From the NCBI GenBank assembly GCA_040954595.2, contig CM082588.2, forward strand, positions 9,408,844 through 9,472,843: DNA of 64,000 bases. Reading direction: 5' to 3'. The translations under genes were made by a program, and so were the position numbers. Shown here in pieces: positions 13,676 through 56,310 of this stretch (positions are counted from its first letter, which is position 1; the number at the start of each line of letters is the position of its first letter). Source of the stretch: Balanoglossus misakiensis (taxonomy: Eukaryota; Animalia; Hemichordata). The notes under the pieces are model-generated. The model saw only the letters and a program-made list of their open reading frames with translations, did no database searches and was not told the origin of the DNA.

Positions 13676-13706
<31 letters not shown>

Positions 13707-13766
13707 TAGTGAAGTTCACTTACAAACATCTTGTTGTTTGTTTAGAAAAAAAAAATAGTGAAGTTC
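13567..13766 (+). repeat. Duplicated poly(A)-containing blocks in the Gypsy 5' leader
   Basis: TTCACTTACAAACATCTTGTTGTTT occurs three times (~13567, 13631, 13714), separated by A-runs ending in TAGTGA. Confidence 0.85.
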
Positions 13767-13901
13767 ATGCATTTCTTTTATCAAGTTTTCTTACGTTAAC
13801 GTGTACTGCTGCCTGTGGTGGCGTACTATAGTTTTGATTTGCTCACTCCAGTACAAACAAATTTGCATTTACTGTACTTGTATTTTTGTTGTATTGCAAT
13901 C

Positions 13902-19652: not shown

Positions 19653-19744
19653 TCAATATGAGATCTGTACGACTGTAACAACATGCCAGAGCAATTTTTT
19701 TTTCATTAATAGTTTGTCCATGACGGGTCGTCATTCTATAAACC

Positions 19745-19753
19745 AGGGGAGAG
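19745..19753 (+). promoter_or_regulatory. Polypurine tract
   Basis: AGGGGAGAG immediately before the 3' LTR. Confidence 0.85.
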
Positions 19754-21203
19754 TGTAAGGAACATATGTTTAGCGCCACCACAGGCAGCACAGGAGCCAG
19801 CCCTGATGTTCTTTTGTTACTGTGGGTCAGAGATCAGAGGTGAGAGACACTCCAGGAAGGCGGGTTAGATGTGCACAGTGTAACTGCTCTGAGGAATCAA
19901 GACATCCAGTCTCCAATCCCGAGTAATCCTGTCTAAATTGGTGCCTGTTACGAAGCTGGTGACGTAAAGTTACTTGTGGTTATGTCTCAAGTGAAACGGA
20001 TGCTGTTTTGGCGACGTTTGTGCCTGTTCGACTCTCTGTAGCAACCTGTTGGTGACCTAACCTGAGAGAGGTTCCGAGAAGTCAAGACATCCAGTTTTCA
20101 ATCCAAGCAATCCTACCCGAACTGGTAAATATACGTTAACCCGATGACCTGAAGTACTTTATAGTGATGTCTCAACTTGAATGAGTGCCATTTTGGTGTA
20201 ATTTTGGTTGAAGTGAACTCTCCAAAATAACTTGTTGATTTTGGTGTATTGTGTACGTGTCTATGCCGTCCTGTGTGTTCAACGACTGTTTCCATGATTT
20301 GTGGATGTTGCTGCAGCCAACTTGAGTTTACTGTTTTGTGTTGTATCCTGTTATCATGAACGCTATCCTGTTATCGTGAACGCTATCCTGTTGTTTCCGG
20401 TTCCACTGATACTTTGTGATATTTCCTAGCCAACTATTTTGTTTGTACTTTTGAAGATACCGACGCGGAACATGTGCTTTATGCAAATTAGCAGTTGCTT
20501 GATATCTCCGTACTGTGTATTTACGTAGTTAGACTTTCATCGATCGCCAGTTTGCAAGTCCCATTTTGGTATTCTACGTTCTACGATTACTACAGTCAGC
20601 TGATTTGTACAGATGTGGATGTCCATGCTGATTTGCTGTCGGTGATTGCCATCTGCGAAGCGAAGCCCTAGAACTGTAGTTACCCCGGCTACCGCGTTGT
20701 ATCCTCTGAAGTCAATTAGGTGTATTTATTGTGAACTATAAATTTATTGATCACGAACTGATGATTTAAACTTGGTGATTACATAAAACAATACTGTAGT
20801 TGTTACTTTACCATATATATTTAGTATTATTTATTTAATTATTATCATCTAGTATTATTTATTCTATATTTTTCTTTATTTACTTTGGTCGATTCAGTTA
20901 TCATATCGATCAAACTTTATATCAAAGACATCACAACATTGTATATTTATATAGCAATTTTGCTGAACCAGTCAGAGTATTCAGTGTATATGAACCTGTA
21001 TATTGTATCTCTTTTTGTATGTAATAATTATTCTGATTATCATTGCATCATATTACTGGCTACCGAGTGTTACTTTGTTGATCAGACAACACCTACGCGA
21101 GCAAAATCCCCTACGACCATGCACTAGTCATTTATTATGCAGCCCTATTCTAAATATTAATTATGATTATCCTGGTGGCTTATTTGGCTTCATATGGCTT
21201 ACA
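19754..21203 (+). repeat. 3' LTR (1450 bp)
   Basis: Direct copy of 11906-13355, followed by the TACA TSD. Confidence 0.97.
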
Positions 21204-29581: not shown

Positions 29582-30200
29582 CTAATCTGATAAGGCTAAC
29601 GCCAGGGATTTGGCGACTCTACATTTGGTTTCCGAGGAAATGACAGTATAGCGTTCGAAGGCATTTGAGCTCCAGTCGCCTTGTAATTTGATGAGAAGAG
29701 GGGGAATACCCAAGTTCACTTCAAATGTTGCCCCTCCCCTGCGAAATGAATGACTCGAATACAGGGATGGTTTGTAGCCACAATTGCTCAGGACTAGTCT
29801 GAGTGTTTTTGTAAACTTTGAATGAGTGAGAACCTGAGGGCAGGATGTGGGTGCATTGGCTGATGGTCGATATGAAAATAAATGGGTATGAGGTTCCTCT
29901 GATGGGGAGAAATGAAGCATCTGGTGGAAAGCTGCCACCGGACATAGGCAGGAGTTGGCAATTTGTTGAAGGGGCAACTCTAGTACTCGTTGGCCATACT
30001 GGATAGTTTTTGTGTGGCGGACCGTAATGGTAGCCAGACCGTTGTGAACGGACACATCATCTCTGCGCAAGTACTTACTGGAATTTGGCAGTGTTTGTCT
30101 TTTAACAACAATGTGGACTTTCTGGCGAAGGTGAAAAATGCGAAAAGGCAAGCGCACCAAAATGTGGCATTGAAGGGGATTGACAGATCCAGGTGTGAGT
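29582..30200 (-). pseudogene. Tyrosine recombinase catalytic domain (N-terminal domain deleted, one frameshift)
   Basis: AFFTFARKS (R), HTKT (K), LCPV, SHSFRRGGAT (HxxR) and GDWSSNAFERY (W, Y). Confidence 0.92.
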
Positions 30201-30209
30201 GAATGTGAG

Positions 30210-31780
30210 TAAGAAGCATCCGTCATATGGTGATACCAATCTCTTAGCGGGTGTAGCTGGTGATTGGCGAGAAGGTTCACTGCTGTGAAGTAGTGTTTGG
30301 CAGAGTGTAAACACGATAAGGAGTCTGCGCTGTTGTCCTTGGTGCTCACGTATCGGGCTGTGATGTGGAAATTAAATAGTGCCGACAGCCAGAACAACTC
30401 GCGAAGCCATTCCATAGCCGCTTTGTTGCGGGATGTACCAGAGTTAATGGCGTACATGGTTGTAGTATTGTCTGTATATACCACTATGTGGCGTTTGTCC
30501 CAGAAACAACACCATCGCCTTCATGCAATCAGGACTGTATACAGTTCCTGTAAGTTGATGTGCATGTCTGCCAAGATAGGGTGGTCGGCCGACCACTGTG
30601 TATAAAACCAGTCATTCGCGAAAAACCCGCTATTGCGCATGCATCAGTGGTGAAAACCTGTTGGGGCAACGGAGTCTCCTCTATGAAGAAAGCCGTACCA
30701 TTGAAAACTTTGCTCAGATTTGTCCACCATTCGATGTCCGCTCTCGCGTGCCTGTTAAGGCGTATGTGATGAGACTGCTGTGAAACTGAGTTTGACAAGT
30801 CAATAAGACGTCTCAAAAATGTGCGTCCGCCTCGAATAACCCGTGCTGCCCAGTTGAGTTTGCCAAGTAGTTGTTGGAGTTCGCGTTTGGTTGTTCGCCG
30901 CTTAGGAAGCCAGTGTTGCAAAAGGTCGCTCAAGTCCTGTAATTTGCCCTTATCGAGGGAAAGCGTCCGTGTGCGTGCATTTATCTCTATGCCAAGAAAT
31001 GTCAGCTGCTGTGTTGGGTTTACCACTTTGTCCCAGTTTATTGTGAAGCCAAGGTTCTGTAAAAGTTGTAATAAAGCCAGAAATGCTTGCTCGCAAGCAA
31101 ATTTGGAGTCCGCTATAATCAGAAAATCATCAAGATAAACAATTACCGCCTGGTACCTTTTTCTGCATATCATTCTGGTGACGCTTTGCGTTATGCGGGT
31201 GAAAATTTCTGGGCTTTTGGCTGCCCCGAATGGTAGCCTGGTGTCCACCATATAAGTAGAGGTATTCTGTCCTGAAAATTTGTAGGGGAGACCTGTAGCT
31301 CGCTGCGAGTCCGTGCTTATAGGGACCGAACGGTACGCTGACTTCAAGTCCACTTTCGCAAGATATGAACCAACTTTGCACAGTTGCACCGCGTGATCTA
31401 TAGTTTCATATTTGAAAGTTGAAGTAGAAGCGTACGCGTTGACACCGCCTCCTACTGGGCGGCTGCAGTCGTGTATGAGTCTGACTTTGTCAGAGTTTTT
31501 CTTGGGGATGGCACCTAAACTGCTAATTATTTGAGGCTTCTCCGCTGTGACACGGTAATTACCCACATCAACCTCATGGATAATTTGTTCCTCGACTGCC
31601 TTGCGATTAGCAGGGTCAGAGCATGACGCATAGTTTTTTCTGTCCACGTTTTGAAGGGGGTACCAGGGGTAATGATATCAAAACCAAATTTTAAACCGTT
31701 GAGTATGAAATCACGATCCATGTCATTTTCCAGTTCATCATTCCACGTTGCCAGGTGATCAGTAAGAGGGCTAGCAACCT
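30210..31780 (-). pseudogene. RT-RNase H of the YR retroelement (frameshifted)
   Basis: VRLIHDCS, KVDLKSAYR, RLPFG, VYLDDFL and FTTDAC, continuing in another frame as VYTDN..SALFNFHITARYVSTKDNSADSLS. Frameshifts near 31645 and 30620. Confidence 0.9.
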
Positions 31781-31784
31781 TATC

Positions 31785-32774
31785 CTAGGCATGATTGTTC
31801 GAAGTTAGCGATTTGTGGCGGTGTTGTGGGTGATCTTTGTGGCACCCGTCCTCGATGCATATGTGCGCAAAACGAGAGTAGGTGCGGTTGCAGCCCGGTG
31901 GGTTTTGGAAATCGAAGCAAATTTCCTTGCCTTTCGAATCATAACTGCGACCTTTGGAGTTGCCTGTGGTATTTTTCCCTTTTCGCTGAGGCGCGACTTG
32001 CCGCTTATCAAGATGATACAGTGACAGGTGAAGGTCTACGGCTCCCCACGCGAGCGAATCGGCAGCCTGCTTTTTCCTGCACTCGTGATCGCAAGTCAGG
32101 ACCGATGGGATTGTGAATGATTGAGCGTAGTCACCAATATTAATTGTATGATCGAGATATGCCAATGTCTCTTCCGTGGACATACCGCGGGCGATCAGTG
32201 CCTTTAAAATGCGGGCATTGGCTGATATCCACTGTGGCAGTGAAACTTGGTCCGGTCGCGGTCGTTGTTTTGCTGTTCGCATAACTAATTTTGTGTCTCT
32301 GTCGGCCGCCAGTTCAGTTTCGTCTGGTTGATCGAACGAACCCTTTTTCGTGGTGACATAGTCCGGAATTAGTAGGGGTTTTCGCTCACCTTTCCCGGGG
32401 GTTGGCTTTGTGTTTGTGGCCTGTGGTTGGTCGGACAGGACGTTTTTGAGGGCATCGTTGCCTAGGGCTTCGAGGAGCTCATTCAGTGCCTTGTTTTTTG
32501 CCAAGTCTTGTGTGGTTACCTCTTTGGTGGCCTCGCCGGCGAGCTTCGGCGTGTCCACGGGCTTGGATTCCGCTTTTTGAGAGCATAGTTTGTTTCGCAA
32601 CTGGCGAAGCAGTCCGCGTTGACCGATGTGTAGCGCTAGGTCGACAATGTCTTGGTCGCTGAGGCACTTCAGTACTTCGGAGGATGTGACCTGGGAGGTG
32701 GTTAGTGAGCTGATAGTGTCTTTTGAAAGACCCGCCGCTTCACACCATTCAACAAAGCTGTAATCTTCTGACAT
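31785..32774 (-). CDS. Gag-like ORF1 of the YR retroelement (329 aa)
   Basis: SAM-like N-terminus (FVEWCEAAGLS..IGQRGLLRQL) and a C-terminal Cys/His finger (ICFDFQ..GC..HIC..C...H). Lies directly upstream of the RT. Confidence 0.8.
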   Translation of the reverse strand: MSEDYSFVEWCEAAGLSKDTISSLTTSQVTSSEVLKCLSDQDIVDLALHIGQRGLLRQLRNKLCSQKAESKPVDTPKLAGEATKEVTTQDLAKNKALNELLEALGNDALKNVLSDQPQATNTKPTPGKGERKPLLIPDYVTTKKGSFDQPDETELAADRDTKLVMRTAKQRPRPDQVSLPQWISANARILKALIARGMSTEETLAYLDHTINIGDYAQSFTIPSVLTCDHECRKKQAADSLAWGAVDLHLSLYHLDKRQVAPQRKGKNTTGNSKGRSYDSKGKEICFDFQNPPGCNRTYSRFAHICIEDGCHKDHPQHRHKSLTSNNHA

Positions 32775-33445
32775 TGTAACTGGTGACTATTGGGAGTATG
32801 TCCGGGAAAGACCGAAATTAAAGCAGTTTCGGCGAGCGACATACAAAATGTCCGCTGTCCGTCTGGGCAAAAAAACCACGAGGTAGCCTCGTCCCAGGAC
32901 CAGCTCCATTTAAACTCCAATAAAACAAGTGTTATTGTACACGTTAATTTCATTTTTCAGTGTCTCAACACAAATGCATAATAGAGGGCCACCTGCCTGA
33001 CCAATTACCAAAAGGTAAGAAAATAAAATTTACATTGGATGCCTCAAACTTCATATTAGTTAACCTACCTTCTTGGAAGAGAGTAAAATTCTCTCTAGAA
33101 AAAGCCATAGACTGTGAAATGTATTTTTCTTTTGTTAAGCATTAGTGCAGAGTTCAGAACAAGTTTCTGAGATGTGTGTCTAAGACAGTTCACTGTTAGT
33201 TTGCATCCAATTTAATTTGCTGGTCCCCATTTGTTAGAATTATGGAATCTACAACACTGTTTACATTTTTTCAGGAAATCCCAATGTCTGTTTACCAGAT
33301 CAAGAAGAGGGAACCAATTCCAGGAGGAAAAGACAAGCAGGTATGATTTAATTTTTATTTACAAATTTTTATTGCAGTTTGTACCCTACTACAACTGGGC
33401 TGAACATCTCCTGTCAAATTCAGTTTTAAGTCAGGTAGAAGAAGT

Positions 33446-38142: not shown

Positions 38143-39215
38143 CGCAAACTTCGTAGTTGATAAGTATAGTACGGGTGCGTCGCTTCGCTATAGCCTACGT
38201 GTACTGTACGACACCCGGGCCCACTGCACCGCGCTTCGCCGTATCGCACCGGTTCCCTCCGGTTAATCCGGTCTCATGAATTATTTTATCCGCCGTAGAA
38301 TAGTTTCCGCTTGTTCTTTGTGCATGCGCCAAAATCGAACGTAAAAATTCTACGCGGTACTACGTAGAATTTCGTCCGCTGTAGAATAGTTTCCGCTTGT
38401 GTTCTATGCGCACGCGTCGATTCATAAACAATGCTCTGCACGCGTACACGCAGTGGTACAATGTAGAATTTTTACAATCTCTCTCTCATACACAACATCG
38501 CGACATGCTATCTCTAGACCCTGCGTAGACCTACGAGGTTCTTTATATCGGATTATGAAAGTGGTCATTATATTGGGTACGACCATAAGAAAACCCCTGG
38601 AGGACGTTATCACTGTAGCAATGTAAAACTATGCCCCCTTTATCAGCTTTATTGTTTATTTCTTCCTCTTTGTCTTCTTCAAGAAAATTCGCGGATGATT
38701 TAATGATTGTTGTTGATGTTTATTTATTTTATGCATTAACCAATATTTGTATTTTGTGAACACTGTTGAGTTTTTACTGGGGGGTTTTCAGTCTAATAGT
38801 AGGGTTCCCAGTGGGTTTGTAAAATTGCATCATTTACCAAAACTGCAAAGAGGAGATGAAAATTCATTCACCACATAACATTAAAAGCACTGGTAAATGT
38901 CAAATTTGAGGCTCCACTAGTCTGAATGAGCAAGCAAAATATGGTGCCAAGTGTGTGCCTTTCTGACACAAAATCAAGATGGACGTCTTTTGTTATACAA
39001 ATGAGGTCATGACCTCATGAATAGCACTGATAGGACTACACATGAATATTAAATATACAATGGATAATTAGAGCTCTGAAAGGAATTTCACACTTGTAAA
39101 TAAAGGCAGATTATTCAAATTTTACAGTTCACATGTTCATCAGCTGTAATGGGCTAAACGTGAAAGTAACTGTCACTCACTTAAATTGTTAAATGATTGC
39201 TGAGTCTATACTTAC

Positions 39216-42200
39216 TCAGACAATTATTTCGAGATCCCCAGCCCTGTAGTCATCCATCAACTTGTATGTGTACACTATTGCTGACCCATCACTCGCCCGG
39301 TCCTCATCATATGTAATGTTAAACCAGCAGGGATAACCTGGAACCTGAAGGAAAATGATACATCATGAGTGTCCTGCCAAGCACTGGCGTCTGTATTCAG
39401 AACATTTACATGATGGCTGCTATGAAATAATGTGGACACTTTATCACTTTATGTGCTAAAATGAAGAAGAGTGTTAGTCACTTAAGTATAGATCACACTG
39501 AAGACATTATTTGCTGAAATAAAGAAACAAGTTAATAAGTCAATTACAAGTTAAACTAAATACATTATTTCCTGAAAGAAAATAGTCAGTTACAGATAAT
39601 TACAATTTACTGAAAAAAAACACAGTGTGCTGTGTTAGCAACCAGTGCTTACAATTCCAAACTTTTGCTGTGCACTTCATTTTGACTTTTTAAAACGTGC
39701 TGTGCAAAAGTATGTGTTTTACCTGTGATATAACATTGCCCATATACCAGGTTAAATCTCCTACATCATCTTTGAATTGGTGCTTGACTCTTTTGCCTAC
39801 AAGCATAGCATCAGATGTAGGTTGGGAAGTAGGCATTTGAAGTGAGTCTTTTATTAACTCCTTCAAATTAGCTGCAAGTTCTTGGATACTTAGGTCACGA
39901 CGCTTGTTTTCAACAACTTCACTGAAGTTGAAGATTCTGGTATTTGCATGTCTTTGCCGCAGAAGATTTTTTCTGAAACGTAGCTGCGCCTTTTGCTTGG
40001 ATACCTGTGTCTGGCAGTGATGTCAGGTACCCATCAACCTGTTCAACAGACTGCCATAATCCATAATGTACTATGTCATGCGACTGCTGTTCTAAGACGC
40101 TCAGCTGGTGCTGTTCGGATTGTCTCCCTACAATGGAACTTCTTGCGTTCCTTGCTGGCTTGTCTTGTAGCTGCTGCCACCAGCTTCGACTTCTCTTCAT
40201 CATTTTCGGCTTCTAACCAAAACTTGGTTTTGTTCATAGTGAACATAATGTAGGCCTCAGAGGCTAGAGTGGAGATATTGGGTTTGACAGTCAGGAGGTG
40301 ATCTTAATATGCAAACATGCGTTCGGGTTGTTTGTTGTGTTGCGCTACGCTCTTGGTGGATGTTGTCATAGCAGGTGTGACATTAACATATTATCCTGCA
40401 GGAAGAAAATCCCTAAAGTGGCGCTGTATCAGTTCAACTAACGCAGGCAAAACAATGCCTAAGATGACCATAGTGTGGTCATCATGTGGTGATGGCTTCA
40501 GTAGTGTGTCTAATATAACGTCATGATTGACGGCAACTGTATCATACATGATACACTTTCCCTGAATGAAATCATCCAGATTTGAAGCTGCTTGTTGTAG
40601 GTAAACGTGGAGTCTGGTGTAGTATGTGTGGACTTCTGTAATGGCTATGTCTGCATCTTCGATTACTTTCCATAGGGGGGTTGTCACATATTTCGAAATA
40701 AGACCCAGGGCCTTACAACCACCTACAAAAAAAGGATTTTGTAGGTCATTCTGCACAGCTGCAAGCAGTCGATTGCCTTCGGTACCATACTTCTGCAAGA
40801 ACTGTACCATGTGCTGATAAAGAAAAAATACATTGCCTCCATTGCTGAACAAAATGTTAAAACGATTTCCACGGTATGGGGAGAGTGGTACAGATTGAAG
40901 ATTATGAGCTCTCAGGAAATCATGGACAAATGTCTTGAAATTGCCATGGCAACCACTTTTGCAATCACCACGTCTGGCAAACGCTTTACAGGCCGTTCGA
41001 ACCAGTCTCAGAGTGCCTGGTTCATTGGAGCGATTGGTGTCCCTGTCTTGCCCTGGTACACTACCTTCGAAGTGGCCCTTTTCAGCTTCAAGAACAGCTT
41101 TCTGTGTGACGTCTGCCATGTGCACGAGTGTATGCAAACCACAAAAGAAATGATTTATCTTGTCTACAGCAGACTTGGACTCAGGATCCAACAAGTCATA
41201 ATTTGGGATGATATCCGGCAACACAGACAAACGGTACTCCTCCAACAGACTGTTGAACTTGACCTCTGTTGCTGCCCTGTCACTCATTGTGTTTTTAATA
41301 TTACCCAAAATTTTCTTGGATACGGCGTTGTCAGTTTCACCAGCTACCTCATCTACATCTTCCAGGATATCCTTAAAGACATCTAGAGTATGTTGTGCAG
41401 ATTTGGTGGCTAGATCCCTCAACCCAAGGACTCTATATGTTCGGTCGTTCAGTCTTGCAGAATAGGCGCCATACTGTTGACTGAATTTTGATGCTTCGTC
41501 AGTATGCAGCGTTGTATTGGCTTCGCAACTTACCTCATCGGATATTTGTTGGCGGACAATAACACTTCTCTCAATGTTCCAGTTGTCAACAGTGGATGGA
41601 GAGGGTAGCCTGTTAGCCTCTTTCCCAGCCAACTTCAAACAGGCTTCTATGACTGGGCCTGTGTGAGTGGAGCCAACGTGATGCGAAAGTAGAGTGTACA
41701 CACAAATATGCACTTCTGGTAGGAATCGTCGTTGTTCTTCATCATACAGTTTCACAGTTGCATTTGCATCAGCCCGAAGCAAGTTTATTTCAGAATGCAG
41801 CTGGTGTACATCATTACTCAGGGCATCTATCTTTGATTGCATCCTTGTAACGGTATTTTCTGATGGAGCACTTTGGCAAACACTTTCTCCTTCCAAACGT
41901 GCACATTTTTTTCTGCCAATATTCTTCACGCATAGCTGTCCTTTTCAATTCTTTTCCCTTCTTTATAACCTTCTTGTGAAGGTCCATTCCTTTTTGGCAT
42001 ATGTCTCCCATATCTTGATTTAGTTTTTCTATTTCCAAGGAGAGTTCTTGGCACGTTTGATTTAGTTTCCAATTTTCGGTGCCCAGCGAGCTGGCAACAC
42101 TGGCATATGTTTCTCTTGCAAGCTTTGGATTGTCTGTGGTTGTAAATGGGGTAGTGGCTTCCTTTTTGGATTGTTGGTTCGGTGATTTCTTTGGAAAGGC

Positions 42201-42476
42201 AAACCTCTCCTGCAAAAATAACTGCATTTCAGTTGCACCTTTTGGCCTTCCTTTGCTCTTACTTAATTTCCGATATTTGTCCATTAACCGAGAGACTGCC
42301 TTGGTGTATGAATCCACACTGTCAGATAAGGTGTTATGGTTAGTTTCACACTCACTACAATGACACATGAAGCTGAGACTTTCACCGTGCAACCACCTTG
42401 CTGTAGATAACACACCATGATCTTTTACTTTGTCTACAATCAGTCGATTTGAAGGTGCATTGCATAGACTTACCAT
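39216..42476 (-). pseudogene. hAT-like DDE transposase with C-terminal Spindlin (Spin/Ssty)-like Tudor domain
   Basis: TLHTDE (D1), TMSDRAA (D2), FFCGLH (CxxH), GNRFN and HNKQPERMFA (E). The spliced C-terminus reads MLVGKRVKHQF..TWYMGNVISQ|VPGYPCWFNITYDED..VYTYKLMDDYRAGDLEIIV* (intron 39722-39345). Frameshift near 41920, stops at 40391 and ~40305. Confidence 0.8.
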
Positions 42477-42811: not shown

Positions 42812-45800
42812 GTGTTCAGTCTATGTTGCAGCTGTGGAAGAGTTTCCCCCTGCCTGTAGAATTTATTCCCTTCGTGTTCAGTCTTTTTTGTAGCTGTGGA
42901 AAAGTTTCCCCACTGCCTGTAGAATTTATTCCCTTCGTGTTCAGTCTTTTTTGCAGCTGTGGAAAAGTTTCCCCCTGCCTGTAGAATTTATTCCCTTCGT
43001 GTTCAGTCTTTTTTGCAGCTGTGGAAAAGTTTCCCCCTGCCTGTAGAATTTATTCCCTTCGTGTTCAGTCTTTTTTGCAGCTGTGGAAAACTTTCCCCCT
43101 GCCTGTAGAATTTATTCCCTTCGTGTTCAGTCTTTTTTGCAGCTGTGGAAAAGTTTCCCCCTGCCTGTAGAATTTATTCCCTTCGTGTTCAGTCTTTTTT
43201 GTAGCTGTGGAAAAGTTTCCCCCCTGCCTGTAGAATTTATTCCGTTCGTGTTCAGTCTTTTTTGCAGCTGTGGAAAAGTTTCCTCCCTGCCTGTAGAATT
43301 TATTCCCTTCGTGTTTAGTCTTTTTTGCAGCTGTGGAAAAGTTTCCCCCTGTCTGTACCCTTTGTGTTCAGTCTTTTTTGTAGCTGTGGAAAAGTTTCCC
43401 CCCTGCCTGTAGCATTTATTCCCTTCGTGTTCAGTCTTTTTTGTAGCTGTGGAAAAGTTTCCCCCCTGCCTGTAGAATTTATTCCCTTCGTGTTCAGTCT
43501 TTTTTGTAGCTGTGGAAAAGTTTTCCCCCTGCCTGTAGAATTTATTCCCTTCGTGTTCAGTCTTTTTTGTAGCTGTGGAAAAGTTTCCCCCCTGCCTGTA
43601 GCATTTATTCCCTTCGTGTTCAGTCTTTTTTGTAGCTGTGGAAAAGTTTCCCCCCTGCCTGTAGAATTTATTCCCTTCGTGTTCAGTCTTTTTTGTAGCT
43701 GTGGAAAAGTTTTCCCCCTGCCTGTAGAATTTATTCCCTTCGTGTTCAGTCTTTTTTGTAGCTGTGGAAAAGTTTCCCCCTGCCTGTACCCTTCGTGTTC
43801 AGTCTTTTTTGTAGCTGTGGAAAAGTTTCCCCCTGTCTGAACCCTTCGTGTTCAGTCTTTTTTGTAGCTGTGGAAAAGTTTCCCCCTGTCTGAACCCTTC
43901 GTGTTCAGTCTTTTTTGTAGCTGTGGAAAAGTTTCCCCCTGTCTGAACCCTTCGTGTTCAGTCTTTTTTGTAGCTGTGGAAAAGTTTCCCCCTGTCTGTA
44001 CCCTTCGTGTTCAGTCTTTTTTGTAGCTGTGGAAAAGTTTCCCCCTGTCTGAACCCTTCGTGTTCAGTCTTTTTTGTAGCTGTGGAAAAGTTTCCCCCCT
44101 GCCTGTAGAATTTATTCCCTTCGTGTTCAGTCTTTTTTGTAGCTGTGGAAAAGTTTTCCCCCTGCCTGTAGAATTTATTCCCTTCGTGTTCAGTCTTTTT
44201 TGTAGCTGTGGAAAAGTTTCCCCCTGCCTGTACCCTTTGTGTTCAGTCTTTTTTGTAGCTGTGGAAAAGTTTCCCCCTGCCTGTACCCTTCGTGTTCAGT
44301 CTTTTTTGTAGCTGTGGAAAAGTTTCCCCCTGTCTGAACCCTTCGTGTTCAGTCTTTTTTGTAGCTGTGGAAAAGTTTCCCCCTGTCTGAACCCTTCGTG
44401 TTCAGTCTTTTTTGTAGCTGTGGAAAAGTTTCCCCCTGTCTGTACCCTTCGTGTTCAGTCTTTTTTGTAGCTGTGGAAAAGTTTCCCCCTGTCTGAACCC
44501 TTCGTGTTCAGTCTTTTTTGTAGCTGTGGAAAAGTTTCCCCCCTGCCTGTAGAATTTATTCCCTTCGTGTTCAGTCTTTTTTGTAGCTGTGGAAAAGTTT
44601 TCCCCCTGCCTGTAGAATTTATTCCCTTCGTGTTCAGTCTTTTTTGTAGCTGTGGAAAAGTTTCCCCCTGTCTGAACCCTTCATGTTCAGTCTTTTTTGT
44701 AGCTGTGGAAAAGTTTCCCCCTGCCTGTACCCTTCGTGTTCAGTCTTTTTTGTAGCTGTGGAAAAGTTTCCCCCTGTCTGAACCCTTCGTGTTCAGTCTT
44801 TTTTGTAGCTGTGGAAAAGTTTCCCCCTGTCTGAACCCTTCGTGTTCAGTCTTTTTTGTAGCTGTGGAAAAGTTTCCCCCTGTCTGAACCCTTCGTGTTC
44901 AGTCTTTTTTGTAGCTGTGGAAAAGTTTTCCCCCTGCCTGTAGAATTTATTCCCTTCGTGTTCAGTCTTTTTTGTAGCTGTGGAAAAGTTCCCCCCTGCC
45001 TGTACCCTTCGTGTTCAGTCTTTTTGTAGCTGTGGAAAAGTTTCCCCCTGTCTGTACCCTTCGTGTTCAGTCTTTTTTGTAGCTGTGGAAAAGTTTCCCC
45101 CTGTCTGAACCCTTCGTGTTCAGTCTTTTTTGTAGCTGTGGAAAAGTTTCCCCCTGTCTGAACCCTTCGTGTTCAGTCTTTTTTGTAGCTGTGGAAAAGT
45201 TTCCCCCTGTCTGAACCCTTCGTGTTCAGTCTTTTTTGTAGCTGTGGAAAAGTTTCCCCCTGTCTGAACCCTTCGTGTTCAGTCTTTTTTGTAGCTGTGG
45301 AAAAGTTTCCCCCTGTCTGAACCCTTCGTGTTCAGTCTTTTTTGTAGCTGTGGAAAAGTTTCCCCCTGTCTGTACCCTTCGTGTTCAGTCTTTTTTGTAG
45401 CTGTGGAAAAGTTTCCCCCTGCCTGTACCCTTCGTGATCAGTCTTTTTTGTAGCTGTGGAAAAGTTTCCCCCTGTCTGAACCCTTCGTGTTCAGTCTTTT
45501 TTGTAGCTGTGGAAAAGTTTCCCCCTGTCTGTACCCTTTGTGTTCAGTCTTTTTTGTAGCTGTGGAAAAGTTTCCCCCTGTCTGAACCCTTCGTGTTCAG
45601 TCTTTTTTGTAGCTGTGGAAAAGTTTCCCCCTGTCTGAACCCTTCGTGTTCAGTCTTTTTTGTAGCTGTGGAAAAGTTTCCCCCTGTCTGAACCCTTCGT
45701 GTTCAGTCTTTTTTGTAGCTGTGGAAAAGTTTCCCCCTGTCTGTACCCTTCGTGTTCAGTCTTTTTTGTAGCTGTGGAAAAGTTTCCCCCTGTCTGTACC

Positions 45801-48800
45801 CTTTGTGTTCAGTCTTTTTTGTAGCTGTGGAAAAGTTTCCCCCTGTCTGTACCCTTTGTGTTCAGTCTTTTTTGTAGCTGTGGAAAAGTTTCCCCCTGTC
45901 TGAACCCTTCGTGTTCAGTCTTTTTTGTAGCTGTGGAAAAGTTTCCCCCTGTCTGAACCCTTCGTGTTCAGTCTTTTTTGTAGCTGTGGAAAAGTTTCCC
46001 CCCTGCCTGTAGAATTTATTCCCTTCGTGTTCAGTCTTTTTTGTAGCTGTGGAAACGTTTCCCCCTGTCTGAACCCTTCGTGTTCAGTCTTTTTTGTAGC
46101 TGTGGAAAAGTTTCCCCCTGTCTGAACCCTTCGTGTTCAGTCTTTTTTGTAGCTGTGGAAAAGTTTCCCCCTGTCTGAACCCTTCGTGTTCAGTCTTTTT
46201 TGTAGCTGTGGAAAAGTTTCCCCCTGTCTGAACCCTTCGTGTTCAGTCTTTTTTGTAGCTGTGGAAAAGTTTCCCCCTGTCTGAACCCTTCGTGTTCAGT
46301 CTTTTTTGTAGCTGTGGAAACGTTTCCCCCTGTCTGAACCCTTCGTGTTCAGTCTTTTTTGTAGCTGTGGAAAAGTTTCCCCCTGTCTGAACCCTTCGTG
46401 TTCAGTCTTTTTTGTAGCTGTGGAAAAGTTTCCCCCTGTCTGAACCCTTCGTGTTCAGTCTTTTTTGTAGCTGTGGAAACGTTTCCCCCTGTCTGAACCC
46501 TTCGTGTTCAGTCTTTTTTGTAGCTGTGGAAACGTTTCCCCCTGTCTGAACCCTTCGTGTTCAGTCTTTTTTGTAGCTGTGGAAAAGTTTCCCCCTGTCT
46601 GAACCCTTCGTGTTCAGTCTTTTTTGTAGCTGTGGAAACGTTTCCCCCTGTCTGAACCCTTCGTGTTCAGTCTTTTTTGTAGCTGTGGAAAAGTTTCCCC
46701 CTGTCTGAACCCTTCGTGTTCAGTCTTTTTTGTAGCTGTGGAAAAGTTTCCCCCTGTCTGAACCCTTCGTGTTCAGTCTTTTTTGTAGCTGTGGAAAAGT
46801 TTCCCCCTGTCTGTACCCTTTGTGTTCAGTCTTTTTTGTAGCTGTGGAAAAGTTTCCCCCTGTCTGAACCCTTCGTGTTCAGTCTTTTTTGTAGCTGTGG
46901 AAAAGTTTCCCCCTGTCTGAACCCTTCGTGTTCAGTCTTTTTTGTAGCTGTGGAAAAGTTTCCCCCTGTCTGAACCCTTCGTGTTCAGTCTTTTTTGTAG
47001 CTGTGGAAACGTTTCCCCCTGTCTGAACCCTTCGTGTTCAGTCTTTTTTGTAGCTGTGGAAAAGTTTCCCCCTGTCTGAACCCTTCGTGTTCAGTCTTTT
47101 TTGTAGCTGTGGAAAAGTTTCCCCCTGTCTGAACCCTTCGTGTTCAGTCTTTTTTGTAGCTGTGGAAAAGTTTCCCCCTGTCTGAACCCTTCGTGTTCAG
47201 TCTTTTTTGTAGCTGTGGAAAAGTTTCCCCCTGTCTGAACCCTTCGTGTTCAGTCTTTTTTGTAGCTGTGGAAAAGTTTCCCCCTGTCTGTACCCTTCGT
47301 GTTCAGTCTTTTTTGTAGCTGTGGAAAAGTTTCCCCCTGTCTGAACCCTTCGTGTTCAGTCTTTTTTGTAGCTGTGGAAAAGTTTCCCCCTGTCTGAACC
47401 CTTCGTGTTCAGTCTTTTTTGTAGCTGTGGAAACGGTTCCCCCTGTCTGAACCCTTCGTGTTCAGTCTTTTTTGTAGCTGTGGAAAAGTTTCCCCCTGTC
47501 TGAACCCTTCGTGTTCAGTCTTTTTTGTAGCTGTGGAAAAGTTTCCCCCTGTCTGAACCCTTCGTGTTCAGTCTTTTTTGTAGCTGTGGAAACGTTTCCC
47601 CCTGTCTGAACCCTTCGTGTTCAGTCTTTTTTGTAGCTGTGGAAACGTTTCCCCCTGTCTGAACCCTTCGTGTTCAGTCTTTTTTGTAGCTGTGGAAAAG
47701 TTTCCCCCTGTCTGTACCCTTCGTGTTCAGTCTTTTTTGTAGCTGTGGAAAAGTTTCCCCCTGTCTGAACCCTTCGTGTTCAGTCTTTTTTGTAGCTGTG
47801 GAAAAGTTTTACCCTGTCTGAACCCTTCGTGTTCAGTCTTTTTTGTAGCTGTGGAAAAGTTTCCCCCTGTCTGAACCCTTCGTGTTCAGTCTTTTTTGTA
47901 GCTGTGGAAACGTTTCCCCCTGTCTGAACCCTTCGTGTTCAGTCTTTTTTGTAGCTGTGGAAACGTTTCCCCCTGTCTGAACCCTTCGTGTTCAGTCTTT
48001 TTTGTAGCTGTGGAAAAGTTTCCCCCTGTCTGAACCCTTCGTGTTCAGTCTTTTTTGTAGCTGTGGAAAAGTTTCCCCCTGTCTGAACCCTTCGTGTTCA
48101 GTCTTTTTTGTAGCTGTGGAAAAGTTTCCCCCTGTCTGAACCCTTCGTGTTCAGTCTTTTTTGTAGCTGTGGAAAAGTTTCCCCCCTGCCTGTAGAATTT
48201 ATTCCCTTCGTGTTCAGTCTTTTTTGTAGCTGTGGAAAAGTTTCCCCCTGTCTGAACCCTTCGTGTTCAGTCTTTTTTGTAGCTGTGGAAAAGTTTCCCC
48301 CTGTCTGAACCCTTCGTGTTCAGTCTTTTTTGTAGCTGTGGAAAAGTTTCCCCCTGTCTGAACCCTTCGTGTTCAGTCTTTTTTGTAGCTGTGGAAAAGT
48401 TTCCCCCTGTCTGAACCCTTCGTGTTCAGTCTTTTTTGTAGCTGTGGAAAAGTTTCCCCCTGTCTGAACCCTTCGTGTTCAGTCTTTTTTGTAGCTGAGG
48501 AAAAGTTTCCCCCTGTCTGTACCCTTCGTGTTCAGTCTTTTTTGTAGCTGTGGAAAAGTTTCCCCCTGTCTGTACCCTTTGTGTTCAGTCTTTTTTGTAG
48601 CTGTGGAAAAGTTTCCCCCTGTCTGTACCCTTTGTGTTCAGTCTTTATTGTAGCTGTGGAAAAGTTTCCCCCTGTCTGAACCCTTCGTGTTCAGTCTTTT
48701 TTGTAGCTGTGGAAAAGTTTCCCCCTGTCTGAACCCTTCGTGTTCAGTCTTTTTTGTAGCTGTGGAAAAGTTTCCCCCCTGCCTGTAGAATTTATTCCCT

Positions 48801-51800
48801 TCGTGTTCAGTCTTTTTTGTAGCTGTGGAAAAGTTTCCCCCTGTCTGAACCCTTCGTGTTCAGTCTTTTTTGTAGCTGTGGAAAAGTTTCCCCCTGTCTG
48901 AACCCTTCGTGTTCAGTCTTTTTTGTAGCTGTGGAAAAGTTTCCCCCTGTCTGAACCCTTCGTGTTCAGTCTTTTTTGTAGCTGTGGAAACGTTTCCCCC
49001 TGTCTGAACCCTTCGTGTTCAGTCTTTTTTGTAGCTGTGGAAACGTTTCCCCCTGTCTGAACCCTTCGTGTTCAGTCTTTTTTGTAGCTGTGGAAAAGTT
49101 TCCCCCTGTCTGAACCCTTCGTGTTCAGTCTTTTTTGTAGCTGTGGAAACGTTTCCCCCTGTCTGAACCCTTCGTGTTCAGTCTTTTTTGTAGCTGTGGA
49201 AAAGTTTCCCCCTGTCTGAACCCTTCGTGTTCAGTCTTTTTTGTAGCTGTGGAAACGTTTCCCCCTGTCTGAACCCTTCGTGTTCAGTCTTTTTTGTAGC
49301 TGTGGAAAAGTTTCCCCCTGTCTGAACCCTTCGTGTTCAGTCTTTTTTGTAGCTGTGGAAAAGTTTCCCCCTGTCTGAACCCTTCGTGTTCAGTCTTTTT
49401 TGTAGCTGTGGAAACGTTTCCCCCTGTCTGAACCCTTCGTGTTCAGTCTTTTTTGTAGCTGTGGAAACGTTTCCCCCTGTCTGAACCCTTCGTGTTCAGT
49501 CTTTTTTGTAGCTGTGGAAAAGTTTCCCCCTGTCTGAACCCTTCGTGTTCAGTCTTTTTTGTAGCTGTGGAAACGTTTCCCCCTGTCTGAACCCTTCGTG
49601 TTCAGTCTTTTTTGTAGCTGTGGAAACGTTTCCCCCTGTCTGAACCCTTCGTGTTCAGTCTTTTTTGTAGCTGTGGAAACGTTTCCCCCTGTCTGAACCC
49701 TTCGTGTTCAGTCTTTTTTGTAGCTGTGGAAAAGTTTCCCCCTGTCTGAACCCTTCGTGTTCAGTCTTTTTTGTAGCTGTGGAAACGTTTCCCCCTGTCT
49801 GAACCCTTCGTGTTCAGTCTTTTTTGTAGCTGTGGAAACGTTTCCCCCTGTCTGAACCCTTCGTGTTCAGTCTTTTTTGTAGCTGTGGAAACGTTTCCCC
49901 CTGTCTGAACCCTTCGTGTTCAGTCTTTTTTGTAGCTGTGGAAAAGTTTCCCCCTGTCTGAACCCTTCGTGTTCAGTCTTTTTTGTAGCTGTGGAAAAGT
50001 TTCCCCCTGTCTGAACCCTTCGTGTTCAGTCTTTTTTGTAGCTGTGGAAAAGTTTCCCCCTGTCTGAACCCTTCGTGTTCAGTCTTTTTTGTAGCTGTGG
50101 AAAAGTTTCCCCCCTGCCTGTAGAATTTATTCCCTTCGTGTTCAGTCTTTTTTGTAGCTGTGGAAAAGTTTCCCTCTGTCTGTACCCTTTGTGTTCAGTC
50201 TTTTTTGTAGCTGTGGAAACGTTTCCCCCTGTCTGAACCCTTCGTGTTCAGTCTTTTTTGTAGCTGTGGAAACGTTTCCCCCTGTCTGAACCCTTCGTGT
50301 TCAGTCTTTTTTGTAGCTGTGGAAAAGTTTCCCCCTGTCTGAACCCTTCGTGTTCAGTCTTTTTTGTAGCTGTGGAAACGTTTCCCCCTGTCTGAACCCT
50401 TCGTGTTCAGTCTTTTTTGTAGCTGTGGAAAAGTTTCCCCCTGTCTGAACCCTTCGTGTTCAGTCTTTTTTGTAGCGGTGGAAACGTTTCCCCCTGTCTG
50501 AACCCTTCGTGTTCAGTCTTTTTTGTAGCTGTGGAAACGTTTCCCCCTGTCTGAACCCTTCGTGTTCAGTCTTTTTTGTAGCTGTGGAAAAGTTTCCCCC
50601 TGTCTGAACCCTTCGTGTTCAGTCTTTTTTGTAGCTGTGGAAAAGTTTCCCCCTGTCTGAACCCTTCGTGTTCAGTCTTTTTTGTAGCTGTGGAAAAGTT
50701 TCCCCCTGTCTGAACCCTTCGTGTTCAGTCTTTTTTGTAGCTGTGGAAAAGTTTCCCCCTGTCTGAACCCTTCGTGTTCAGTCTTTTTTGTAGCTGTGGA
50801 AACGTTTCCCCCTGTCTGAACCCTTCGTGTTCAGTCTTTTTTGTAGCTGTGGAAAAGTTTCCCCCTGTCTGAACCCTTCGTGTTCAGTCTTTTTTGTAGC
50901 TGTGGAAAAGTTTCCCCCTGTCTGAACCCTTCGTGTTCAGTCTTTTTTGTAGCTGTGGAAAAGTTTCCCCCTGTCTGAACCCTTCGTGTTCAGTCTTTTT
51001 TGTAGCTGTGGAAAAGTTTCCCCCTGTCTGAACCCTTCGTGTTCAGTCTTTTTTGTAGCTGTGGAAAAGTTTCCCCCTGTCTGAACCCTTCGTGTTCAGT
51101 CTTTTTTGTAGCTGTGGAAAAGTTTCCCCCTGTCTGAACCCTTCGTGTTCAGTCTTTTTTGTAGCGGTGGAAACGTTTCCCCCTGTCTGAACCCTTCGTG
51201 TTCAGTCTTTTTTGTAGCTGTGGAAAAGTTTCCCCCTGTCTGAACCCTTCGTGTTCAGTCTTTTTTGTAGCTGTGGAAAAGTTTCCCCCTGTCTGAACCC
51301 TTCGTGTTCAGTCTTTTTTGTAGCTGTGGAAAAGTTTCCCCCTGTCTGAACCCTTCGTGTTCAGTCTTTTTTGTAGCTGTGGAAAAGTTTCCCCCTGTCT
51401 GAACCCTTCGTGTTCAGTCTTTTTTGTAGCTGTGGAAAAGTTTCCCCCTGTCTGTACCCTTTGTGTTCAGTCTTTTTTGTAGCTGTGGAAAAGTTTCCCC
51501 CTGTCTGAACCCTTCGTGTTCAGTCTTTTTTGTAGCTGTGGAAAAGTTTCCCCCTGTCTGAACCCTTCGTGTTCAGTCTTTTTTGTAGCTGTGGAAAAGT
51601 TTCCCCCTGTCTGAACCCTTCGTGTTCAGTCTTTTTTGTAGCTGTGGAAAAGTTTCCCCCTGTCTGAACCCTTCGTGTTCAGTCTTTTTTGTAGCTGTGG
51701 AAAAGTTTCCCCCTGTCTGAACCCTTCGTGTTCAGTCTTTTTTGTAGCTGTGGAAAAGTTTCCCCCTGTCTGAACCCTTCGTGTTCAGTCTTTTTTGTAG

Positions 51801-54727
51801 CTGTGGAAAAGTTTCCCCCTGTCTGAACCCTTCGTGTTCAGTCTTTTTTGTAGCTGTGGAAAAGTTTCCCCCTGTCTGAACCCTTCGTGTTCAGTCTTTT
51901 TTGTAGCTGTGGAAAAGTTTCCCCCTGTCTGAACCCTTCGTGTTCAGTCTTTTTTGTAGCTGTGGAAAAGTTTCCCCCTGTCTGAACCCTTCGTGTTCAG
52001 TCTTTTTTGTAGCTGTGGAAAAGTTTCCCCCTGTCTGAACCCTTCGTGTTCAGTCTTTTTTGTAGCTGTGGAAAAGTTTCCCCCTGTCTGTACCCTTCGT
52101 GTTCAGTCTTTTTTGTAGCTGTGGAAAAGTTTCCCCCTGTCTGAACCCTTCGTGTTCAGTCTTTTTTGTAGCTGTGGAAAAGTTTCCCCCTGTCTGAACC
52201 CTTCGTGTTCAGTCTTTTTTGTAGCTGTGGAAAAGTTTCCCCCCTGCCTGTAGAATTTATTCCCTTCGTGTTCAGTCTTTTTTGTAGCTGTGGAAAAGTT
52301 TCCCCCTGTCTGTACCCTTTGTGTTCAGTCTTTTTTGTAGCTGTGGAAAAGTTTCCCCCTGTCTGAACCCTTCGTGTTCAGTCTTTTTTGTAGCTGTGGA
52401 AAAGTTTTCCCCCTGCCTGTAGAATTTATTCCCTTCGTGTTCAGTCTTTTTTGCAGCTGTGGAAAAGTTTCCCCCCTGCCTGTAGAATTTATTCCCTTCG
52501 TGTTCAGTCTTTTTTGTAGCTGTGGAAAAGTTTCCCCCTGTCTGAACCCTTCGTGTTCAGTCTTTTTTGTAGCTGTGGAAAAGTTTCCCCCTGTCTGTAC
52601 CCTTTGTGTTCAGTCTTTTTTGTAGCTGTGGAAAAGTTTCCCCCTGTCTGAACCCTTCGTGTTCAGTCTTTTTTGTAGCTGTGGAAAAGTTTCCCCCCTG
52701 CCTGTAGAATTTATTCCCTTCGTGTTCAGTCTTTTTTGTAGCTGTGGAAAAGTTTCCCCCTGTCTGTACCCTTTGTGTTCAGTCTTTTTTGTAGCTGTGG
52801 AAAAGTTTCCCCCTGTCTGTACCCTTTGTGTTCAGTCTTTTTTGTAGCTGTGGAAAAGTTTCCCCCTGTCTGAACCCTTCGTGTTCAGTCTTTTTTGTAG
52901 CTGTGGAAAAGTTTTCCCCCTGCCTGTAGAATTTATTCCCTTCGTGTTCAGTCTTTTTTGTAGCTGTGGAAAAGTTTCCCCCTGTCTGAACCCTTCGTGT
53001 TCAGTCTTTTTTGTAGCTGTGGAAAAGTTTCCCCCTGTCTGTACCCTTTGTGTTCAGTCTTTTTTGTAGCTGTGGAAAAGTTTCCCCCTGTCTGAACCCT
53101 TCGTGTTCAGTCTTTTTTGTAGCTGTGGAAAAGTTTTCCCCCTGCCTGTAGAATTTATTCCCTTCGTGTTCAGTCTTTTTTGCAGCTGTGGAAAAGTTTC
53201 CCCCCTGCCTGTAGAATTTATTCCCTTCGTGTTCAGTCTTTTTTGTAGCTGTGGAAAAGTTTCCCCCTGTCTGTACCCTTTGTGTTCAGTCTTTTTTGTA
53301 GCTGTGGGAAAGTTTCCCCCTGTCTGAACCCTTTGTGTTCAGTCTTTTTTGTAGCTGTGGAAAAGTTTCCCCCTGTCTGAACCCTTCGTGTTCAGTCTTT
53401 TTTGTAGCTGTGGGAAAGTTTCCCCCTGTCTGAACCCTTTGTGTTCAGTCTTTTTTGTAGCTGTGGAAAAGTTTCCCCCCTGCCTGTACCCTTCGTGTTC
53501 AGTCTTTTTTGTAGCTGTGGAAAAGTTTCCCCCCTGCCTGTACCCTTCGTGTTCAGTCTTTTTTGTAGCTGTGGAAAAGTTTCCCCCTGTCTGTACCCTT
53601 TGTGTTCAGTCTTTTTTGTAGCTGTGGAAAAGTTTCCCCCCTGCCTGTACCCTTCGTGTTCAGTCTTTTTTGTAGCTGTGGGAAAGTTTCCCCCTGTCTG
53701 AACCCTTTGTGTTCAGTCTTTTTTGTAGCTGTGGAAAAGTTTCCCCCTGTCTGAACCCTTCGTGTTCAGTCTTTTTTGTAGCTGTGGAAAAGTTTCCCCC
53801 TGTCTGAACCCTTCGTGTTCAGTCTTTTTTGTAGCTGTGGAAAAGTTTCCCCCTGTCTGTACCGTTCGTGTTCAGTCTTTTTTGTAGCTGTGGAAAAGTT
53901 TCCCCCCTGCCTGTACCCTTCGTGTTCAGTCTTTTTTGTAGCTGTGGGAAAGTTTCCCCCTGTCTGAACCCTTTGTGTTCAGTCTTTTTTGTAGCTGTGG
54001 AAAAGTTTCCCCCTGTCTGAACCCTTCGTGTTCAGTCTTTTTTGTAGCTGTGGAAAAGTTTTCCCCTGTCTGAACCCTTCGTGTTCAGTCTTTTTTGTAG
54101 CTGTGGAAAAGTTTCCCCCCTGCCTGTACCCTTCGTGTTCAGTCTTTTTTGTAGCTGTGGAACAGTTTCCCCCTGTCTGTACCCTTCGTGTTCAGTCTTT
54201 TTTGTAGCTGTGGAAAAGTTTCCCCCTGTCTGTACCCTTCGTGTTCAGTCTTTTTTGTAGCTGTGGAAAAGTTTCCCCCTGTCTGAACCCTTTGTGTTCA
54301 GTCTTTTTTGTAGCTGTGGAAAAGTTTCCCCCTGTCTGAACCCTTCGTGTTCAGTCTTTTTTGTAGCTGTGGAAAAGTTTCCCCCCTGCCTGTAGAATTT
54401 ATTCCCTTCGTGTTCAGTCTTTTTTGTAGCTGTGGAAAAGTTTCCCCCTGTCTGAACCCTTCGTGTTCAGTCTTTTTTGTAGCTGTGGAAAAGTTTCCCC
54501 CTGTCTGAACCCTTCGTGTTCAGTCTTTTTTGTAGCTGTGGAAAAGTTTCCCCCTGTCTGTACCCTTCGTGTTCAGTCTTTTTTGTAGCTGTGGAAAAGT
54601 TTCCCCCTGTCTGAACCCTTCGTGTTCAGTCTTTTTTGTAGCTGTGGAAAAGTTTCCCCCTGTCTGTACCCTTTGTGTTCAGTCTTTTTTGTAGCTGTGG
54701 AAAAGTTTCCCCCTGCCTGTAGAATTT
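42812..54727 (+). repeat. ~11.9-kb satellite array of 53-bp and 62/63-bp monomers (~220 units estimated from length)
   Basis: Short unit GTGTTCAGTCTTTTTTGTAGCTGTGGAAAAGTTTCCCCCTGTCTGAACCCTTC. The long unit ends ..CCTGCCTGTAGAATTTATTCCCTTC. Confidence 0.99.
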
Positions 54728-55507
54728 TCACCACTTCACTGCCTATTGAAAAAAATCCCGACCCCAAGTTCACCCGATGTGCAGTCCGTCTTCCGCATAA
54801 AAAAGTCTTTCTGTCAAATTATTAAGTATTCCAACTATTGAAGCATCATATAAATGGTGCAATGGAAACTATAGTAGTATAAATTACCAGATTTGACATT
54901 AAACTCACCTTTAAGTTGACGCCGTTTATCCAATTATCCGATCGTAGTATGTCACCCATATCGGCGCAGTTATTTATAATTGATTGAATCAGTCATTTAC
55001 ACCTTGCCTGTCAGCTATACACCGAGTTCCACGTAACAGTCGAGTGTAGATCAGCAAAAAGCTGTCGGAAAACTGTCCCGAAAACGACAACGGTGCACGC
55101 AAAATCCGCGATCGATCGAGCAGACAAGCGAAACAAACACGTGTTATTGTGAATGTTTACACTGTCTTTAGTTCAGGCGAGGTCAAGTCATCTGAGGACG
55201 TCAACACAGCATCGAGAAAAGTGAAAAAATTTACCGATAACGCCTTCTAAAGAACCCTCTTTGTACAATTTCGTTTAGATGAGAAGTCCTTTTGTATAAA
55301 ATAAGTGATATTTTATAAAAAATAGTCACGATATCATGGTATTTTCGGCGATTTATGCCTACCCGGAATAAATTCTACAGCTAATTGACCGCTGACGAGC
55401 AGGGACGACTGCGCATGCAAAAGGGGCGTGTTCTGCGCAGGTGGATACTATTCCACAGGCAGAATAAAATGTGACACCGGCGGTAGGAATACTTTTTTTG
55501 GATTTTA

Positions 55508-56310
55508 TTGTGTGGTGTCAGCGCTAACACTTTAGGTTACGCTGACGACATGACTCTACTCAGTCCAAGTGTTAAGGGTCTACGCCGTCTTCTTAGAATT
55601 TGTGAAATTTATGGCAAGGATTATGATATCATTTATAATTCTAGTAAAACTGTGTGCATGCTTTTTAATGGGAAGAATATGAGAGTTCAAAGAATTCCTT
55701 CGGTTAAACTTAATGACATCACTTTGAAGTTTGTACCTGTACACACCTATTTGGGCCATGTAATATCTTGTGATGGTTGTGATAATGAAGATATTGAACG
55801 ACAAAGAGCATTTTGCGTTAGAGCAAACATGCTATTGAGACATTTTCAACATTGTAGTCAAGATGTAAAGAAAGTTTTATTTTTGGCATATTGTAGTAAT
55901 ATTTACTGTTGCAGTTTGTGGACATCCTTTAAAGTTAAACCGATGAAAAAATTTAAAACTATGTACAATATTGTTTGGAGAAGACTTCTCGGTTGTCCGC
56001 CATTTTGCAGTGCATCGGGTATGTTTGCTACAAACCATGTATTGTCACTTGGTGAAGTTTTTAGACGCAATATGTACAGTTTTAAGCGTAGACTCGAAAA
56101 TTCTTCTAATGTTTTACTTGATGCGATCTGTTCATCAGATAGAGCGACTGACAGCATATTTTTCAAACATTGGCGAAAGCAATTGTATATCATGTAATTT
56201 TGCAGACTTTTTTTTGTGCATGTGTGTGTCTCTTTTTTTTCTCTCTTTTGGGTATATGGACTTTTTTTTTTAAAGTCTGAAATAAAGTATTATTATTATT
56301 ATTATTATTA
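55508..56310 (+). mobile_element. 5'-truncated non-LTR retrotransposon (RT C-terminus, possibly RTE-X-like)
   Basis: GYADDMTLL, KTVCM, TYLGH and a C-terminal ..AYCSNIYCCSLW.. ORF ending at 56197. Then a short 3' UTR, AATAAA (~56281) and a (TAT)n tail. Confidence 0.88.

Follow-up and report, generated by a model that had tools for sequence, protein, structure and literature searches.

The window, a stretch of 64,000 nucleotides from the hemichordate Balanoglossus misakiensis (contig CM082588.2), contains a decayed, no longer functional hAT-like cut-and-paste transposon, in which the transposase gene runs into a Spindlin-type Tudor domain. The features of this locus, in positions counted from the first letter of the window, are as follows.

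39723..42476, minus strand: long transposase exon, broken in this copy; covered in order by tblastn of relatives, with a candidate ATG at 42476-42474.
40133..41770, minus strand: transposase core, AlphaFold model with a pLDDT of 96.7 (both stops read as X).
41500-41498, 41281-41279 and 40324-40322, minus strand: putative catalytic D, D and E, by alignment.
41143-41132, 40864-40862 and 40672-40670, minus strand: other core residues, CxxH, R and W, by alignment.
40391-40393 and 40304-40306, minus strand: in-frame TAA stops, from the open frames and tblastn.
39723..39806, minus strand: opening half of the Spin/Ssty repeat, closing the long exon in its reading frame; F at SPIN1 F141 and Y at the W151 position.
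39345..39722, minus strand: intron within the Tudor domain, between SQ and V; 378 nt, phase 0, GT-AG.
39216..39344, minus strand: last exon, with the second Tudor half and the stop; Y at Y170, Y at Y177, D at D184 and D at D189.
38800..38814, no strand assigned (TAGGG on the plus strand): probable right end, TAGGG, 416 nt beyond the stop codon.
42812..54727, no strand assigned: 53/62-bp tandem array, abutting the gene on its 5' side, in the place expected for the left end.

The long exon encodes, in order, an N-terminal region with a coiled coil, a helical domain, an RNase H-like DDE core with a helical insertion, a helical tail and the first half of the Tudor domain. The closest relatives matched it in tblastn with 44-47% identity over about 610 amino acids, and the alignments of relatives run colinearly from about 42460 to 39720 and resume at 39344-39219. 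The initial annotation had called the transposase hAT-like, and both structure comparisons bore this out with Hermes as the best match: the modeled window core aligned with Hermes at a Z score of 16.2 (rmsd 3.7 over 345 residues), the next structures being ISCth4 (Z 10.0) and the P element (Z 8.8), and the top ten Foldseek matches were all Hermes (E 5.2e-07). The P, Mutator/IS256 and Transib/RAG superfamilies were dropped as candidates because they rank far below Hermes in the structure searches. The catalytic D, D and E, together with CxxH, R and W, are each conserved in 107 or all 108 of the aligned sequences, and the DDE residues are intact in the window copy. A Pfam scan of the window ORFs and 39 relatives gave no transposase family and no Dimer_Tnp_hAT, BED finger or ZBED1-type RNase H, suggesting that the transposase belongs to a divergent branch. 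Among protein language-model look-alikes, hAT clusters scored just 0.76-0.77, which serves as a lead only. The cluster nearest to residues 230-760 of the relative P0123 was an 808-amino-acid family, mostly of Basidiomycota (score 0.88, likewise a lead only), and from this lead the transposase branch may reach fungi.

The window copy carries two in-frame TAA stops and three frameshifts (near 41910, near 40117 and at 40015-39992), in agreement with its earlier description as a pseudogene. In contigs from one public DNA sample (two runs), the letters at the first stop and around the 41906 frameshift are not those of the window, so that less decayed copies or alleles may exist. Contigs covered the gene at about threefold the depth of a nearby piece, a ratio that does not stand for copy number here.

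The tail of the gene lies in two pieces. On the minus strand, 39806-39723 translates as MLVGKRVKHQF...TWYMGNVISQ and 39344-39216 as VPGYPCWFNITYDED...VYTYKLMDDYRAGDLEIIV followed by the stop codon, and the splice donor (CAG/gtaaaa) and acceptor (ttccttcag/GTT) bound a GT-AG intron of 378 nt in phase 0. The initial annotation had presented the two pieces as additional exons. Both peptides and the clean phase-0 junction stood, but 39806-39723 does not form an exon of its own. It closes the open frame 39690-40022, a continuation of the transposase exon, to which relatives align as the transposase tail. In a Pfam scan, Spin-Ssty was the sole family matched by each piece. The first piece aligned to positions 1-26 of the profile (E 0.00056; 20.1 bits), the second to positions 27-50 (E 0.11; 12.7 bits), each alone below the 25-bit cut-off; the proposed splice therefore leaves neither overlap nor gap. 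When spliced, the window domain scored 94.3 bits on a family HMM, compared with at most 9.8 bits for 500 shuffles. This HMM was built from the tails of 26 flagged relatives, with the window sequence left out. The open frame 39690-40022 alone, searched against the PDB, had 18 matches, of which the top 17 were Spindlin chains, weakly (best E 0.0017). The last exon holds an insertion of about six residues ahead of the last cage strand.

A search with the core recovered 141 relatives of similar length, at least 12 of them with PF02513 on record among the matches listed (120 of the 141), and 87 longer relatives, 18 with PF02513 on record. Named relatives come from bivalves, gastropods, sea urchins, a sea star, a sponge and a catfish; viral contigs gave no relative. 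The family HMM found the whole domain in 49 of the 87 long relatives, the first half in 27, a partial domain in one and none in ten, and 25 of the 27 first-half-only proteins end at HMM positions 29-30, which is the intron site. The 25-bit Pfam cut-off was passed by 14 of 29 scanned relatives, and annotated joined forms pass it, P0161 for example with 44.6 bits. At the DNA level, 30 of 80 metagenome loci had a Tudor match, 16 in one piece, six in two pieces and the rest partial. The two-piece loci (L002, L007, L008, L046, L069 and L070, of which L002 and L069 are close kin) have a GT-AG intron of 102-533 nt between SQ and V. Thus the fusion proposed from the window copy occurs in relatives with long open frames, including the locus L026, where one frame holds the core and the repeats. 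Automatic annotation labels two of the fusion proteins SPIN3-like. Taken together, these results demonstrate that the transposase-Spin/Ssty fusion is real.

In a FastTree phylogeny of 88 cores, 29 intron-type sequences, including the window, and three Tudor-less ones formed a single clade (support 0.91); the tree was midpoint-rooted, and the intron-type labels rest on HMM matches and not on the DNA of each gene. A separate clade (support 0.997) held five two-repeat proteins. Two tandem Tudor-like repeats were seen in L026 (6141-6563), in P0204-P0208 and in P0106, and the named members are echinoderms. The two-repeat clade is a possible step towards the three-repeat layout of Spindlin. The simplest reading of the midpoint-rooted tree would be that the fusion is ancestral, with a single intron gain, a single duplication and two or more losses. 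Among the Tudor-less proteins is P0128, of 881 amino acids, whose coding DNA (L011) reaches a stop ahead of the domain, and P0127 and P0129 share this end point. At 2770-3130 of L011, after the P0128 stop, the letters resemble an eroded first half (KHHMDGIWTGRIS), with a potential splice acceptor. This segment gave no match to the family HMM, and may be the relic of a lost domain.

Core and Tudor distances correlate across the family (rho 0.40, 50 sequences, 0 of 999 permutations, relatedness uncorrected). Mean identity in 63 sequences was 0.39 for the Tudor domain, 0.43 for the RNase H part, 0.38 for the insertion and 0.18 for the coiled coil; by this measure of sequence identity the Tudor domain matches the catalytic core in conservation.

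We also examined the ends of the elements. In L026, a single frame of 1190 codons with the core and two Tudor-like repeats lies between inverted ends of 15-16 bp, with a perfect TAGGGCAGTCACCCC at both, flanked by a 7-bp target duplication (CTGAAGG). None of 200 shuffles of the L026 flanks produced inverted ends accompanied by a 7-bp duplication. L026 was the only one of 26 loci scanned with flanks that had convincing ends, most others being too short or decayed. The family is a transposon. In the window, the five terminal letters of the right-end candidate are identical to those of L026. Contigs of both sequencing runs start at 38799, and one flank-spanning contig diverges within the preceding few bases. 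TAGGG by itself is a weak motif, since it occurs 21 times on the plus strand of the window. Inverted-repeat scans of the window gave no convincing pair of ends, nor a left end that matched and had a target duplication. A TAGGG at 56604 was rejected as the other end; it matches the right end over five letters only and has no duplication. On the 5' side, the tandem array has 211 copies of period 53 at 43305-54719 (95% match), with related units from 42812. A contig of run X2 follows the gene as far as 42813, beyond which it has 868 other letters. The 53/62-bp array is probably not part of the transposon. The array motif ATTCTAC recurs in inverted orientation at 38283-38470 and around 55372-55480; the satellite and the transposon may therefore both lie within an outer element.

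The window holds several other repeats. At 11906-21203 there is an apparently intact Gypsy-type LTR retrotransposon with identical LTRs of about 1450 bp and a 4-bp duplication (TACA), whose one 1950-amino-acid frame has an RRM (RRM_1, E 4.9e-09) before a PNMA/Gag part. A SAP-domain frame (6005-6676, E 7e-10) lies beside a 780-amino-acid frame without a clear Pfam family (7632-9974), and the region 6005-9974 may be another transposon. Three consecutive frames on the minus strand at 29582-32786, one with a reverse transcriptase match (E 6.2e-20), are a decayed retroelement, and a reverse transcriptase fragment at 55487-56197 lies inside a repeat of very high depth. A tandem array of period 239 (4.8 copies) occupies 2800-3971.

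The kinship to Spindlin that had been read from the window translation is supported by the Pfam matches of both halves, by the family profile on SPIN3 and by the predicted fold. On repeats 2, 1 and 3 of SPIN3 the family profile scored 52.7, 31.9 and 16.7 bits, respectively, and four single-domain queries all favoured SPIN repeat 2, one of them barely (22.7 versus 20.7). A model of the relative P0161 (residues 802-871) matched Spindlin-4 with a Z score of 10.0 (rmsd 2.8 over 67 residues) and the plant RDM15 Tudor domain with a Z score of 7.9; in Foldseek it superposed on Spindlin1 with an rmsd of about 1-3 Å. These comparisons of sequence place the domain closest to repeat 2 of SPIN1, the H3K4me3 reader.

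According to the SPIN1 study (PMC3967050), F141, W151, Y170 and Y177 of repeat 2 hold K4me3, D184 contacts H3R2, E142 and D189 contact the H3 N-terminus, and the three repeats form one integrated globule. We numbered the SPIN1 positions along the full-length chain 7e9m. The initial annotation had suggested looking for an aromatic cage, and the alignment puts aromatic residues at all four of these positions in the window copy (F, Y, Y and Y); at E142, D189 and D184 it has K, D and D. Across 71 family domains, the Y170 position is Y in all 71, the W151 position is aromatic in 67 (W in only one), the F141 position is aromatic in 58, and the Y177 position is aromatic in 45 and non-aromatic in 26. 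All four cage positions are aromatic in 30 domains and three in 39. There are also cage sub-groups, W/Y/Y/L in 12 of the 71 (including a named sponge protein) and F/Y/Y/C or F/F/Y/C in seven. The D184 position is D in 65 domains and the D189 position in 48, the E142 position is not conserved, and the D173 position is E in 43 and D in 24. The most conserved positions of the domain are H139, G153 and Y170, and the net charge is negative in 65 of the 71, with a median of -5. Because the 71 domains were picked by the HMM built on tails of 26 relatives, these conservation counts lean high.

We then considered what the tail might do. The reading that we favour, at somewhat better than even confidence, is that the tail binds a methylated histone lysine and thereby tethers the transposase to marked chromatin. 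The domain would sit at the tip of a long helix with its acidic face towards the basic tail of histone H3, and the F/Y/Y/Y cage would take the methyl-lysine, for which H3K4me3 is the first guess by analogy with SPIN1 repeat 2. A transposase multimer would carry several Tudor domains and so could gain avidity. The tether is probably an accessory, since some lineages have lost the domain, and it would raise or bias insertion while staying outside the chemistry. A reader role throughout the family is opposed by the non-aromatic fourth cage position in 26 of 71 domains and by some long ORFs that end before the domain. Moreover, the SPIN1 repeats form an integrated unit, so a lone repeat may bind weakly.

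Four other explanations were weighed against this tether. The tail could be a docking module for a non-histone partner such as a methylated host factor, a chromatin remodeller or a silencing factor, which we regard as unlikely while giving it some weight. Precedents exist, in that SPINDOC binds SPIN1 repeat 3 (bioRxiv 10.1101/2021.03.07.432812) and a Spindlin1-HBx complex is in the PDB, and the variation of the cage among the sub-groups is in keeping with this reading; however, the family is nearest repeat 2 and not repeat 3, and it retains D184 and D189, both of which grip H3 N-terminal residues in SPIN1. Methylated-histone reading might instead serve defence or regulation, either holding the transposase on its own active copies or competing with silencing readers. 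SPIN1 is described as silencing young transposons that bear H3K4me3 and H3K9me3 (bioRxiv 10.64898/2026.08.20.746118), which lends this idea some appeal, but a domain fused to the enzyme would be more simply explained by tethering during the jump, and we consider the defensive or regulatory role rather improbable.

Less probable again is that the tail is a structural or DNA-binding SH3-like barrel whose aromatic residues only form its core. Retroviral integrases have a C-terminal domain with an SH3-like barrel, the Tudor fold is common to many non-reader domains (matches with Z 5.5-6.5 to the P0161 model), and the most conserved positions, H139, G153 and Y170, could be structural. Nonetheless, the sequence similarity is specific to Spindlin, and the acidity of 65 of 71 domains argues against DNA binding. 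The last explanation, that the Spin-like exons do not belong to the transposase and lie beside it by chance or as a captured piece of a host gene, might be suggested by the broken state of the window copy and by a splice predicted from DNA. It is contradicted by the first half lying in the transposase frame, by the 16 one-piece loci and the six with the same intron among the 80, and by the correlation of core and Tudor distances; intronless single-frame fusions such as L026 already refute it, and we give this explanation almost no weight.

Comparison with known systems places the reader tether in context. The hAT signature consists of D, D, E, CxxH and an R/W region with the typical motif RWN, whereas the motif in the window family is RFN. 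Like the Hermes transposase of the hAT superfamily (PDB 8edg, 4d1q, 6dwz and 2bw3), the family has a predicted RNase H-like core fold with a helical insertion, D, D and E with CxxH, an ER-F motif at the last E, and short inverted ends; unlike them, it shares only 11-15% sequence identity, and it has a long N-terminal coiled coil and a C-terminal Tudor domain. The duplication at L026, from one element, is 7 bp, as opposed to the usual 8 bp of hAT elements. A 7-bp target duplication is characteristic of hATw elements, and hATw is a candidate group that the L026 duplication and the aquatic-invertebrate range would fit. The hATw class (DNA/hAT-hATw in Repbase and RepeatMasker) was named for an amphioxus element, according to PMC12905397. 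PMC12730594 reports hAT groups with 5-, 6- and 7-bp duplications, exceptions that take in the 7 bp of L026, among them the fungal hAT7 group, which has 7-bp duplications and sits among Ac/Tam3-like hATs; its supplement does not list hATw.

Repeat 2 of Spindlin-1 to -4 (PF02513; PDB 7e9m, 4mzg, 4uy4 and 5a1h) resembles the tail in profile and predicted fold, and in the four aromatic cage positions, D184 and D189 of the window copy, and differs in that the family has Y for W151 and no E142. Spindlin proteins (SPIN1-4 and SSTY) consist of three tandem repeats with no other folded domain, whereas the transposon family has one or two repeats fused to a transposase. The chromodomains of chromoviruses and the Tudor domain of the Ectocarpus element Gypsy-10_Ec32 are alike in being histone-reader-type domains C-terminal on a DDE enzyme. 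Chromoviruses and Gypsy-10_Ec32 are LTR retrotransposons, whereas the window family is a cut-and-paste DNA transposon with a Spindlin-type domain. In a 2025 report (PMC12477816), the brown-algal Gypsy element (Gypsy-10_Ec32) is called the first reported transposable element with a Tudor domain.

We finally asked where Spindlin itself may have come from. The initial annotation had raised the possibility that such transposons were a source or a recipient of the module. Scores of single transposon domains bear on this. SPIN repeat 2 scored about 38 bits with P0355 (38 of 71 transposon domains reach 38), 39.3 bits with P0308 (42 of 71 at 38 or more) and, as an engineered Spindlin1 chain, 32.1 bits with P0342 (23 of 71 at 30 or more); with P0236 it scored 22.7 bits, below at least 55 of the 71. 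For three of the four domains, then, SPIN repeat 2 outscores a large share of fellow transposon domains, and the four sets of scores suggest that it lies within the family's own range of similarity. The scores are no tree and fit either direction, and a slowly evolving SPIN would produce a like pattern. Spindlin is best known from vertebrates. A narrow word search among short proteins with the Tudor region gave 10 matches for 14 candidates, none of them a named host Spindlin. As a tentative proposal, which we hold to be possible but doubtful, an ancient animal transposon targets or holds chromatin through a Spindlin-type reader, and vertebrate Spindlin would have arisen by capture and triplication of its tail. 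The capture reading fits the presence of the domain on transposons from sponges to fish and the two tandem repeats of one clade.

Reader domains on the integrases of LTR retrotransposons were already known; in the present family a Spindlin-type Tudor tail is joined to a transposase of a divergent hAT-like branch. The literature searched, which excluded Repbase Reports and most subscription papers, described no Spindlin-type domain on a transposase. The window copy is dead, and the value of the finding lies in the family. Reader-guided insertion is known for LTR retrotransposons and, if the tether is true, a Spindlin-type pocket would extend it to DNA transposons. The family provides natural variants on one tree, some with the cage complete, some with it altered, some with two repeats and some with no repeat, which allow a direct test. 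It also offers a testable origin for Spindlin, which bioRxiv 10.64898/2026.08.20.746118 describes as itself a repressor of young transposons.
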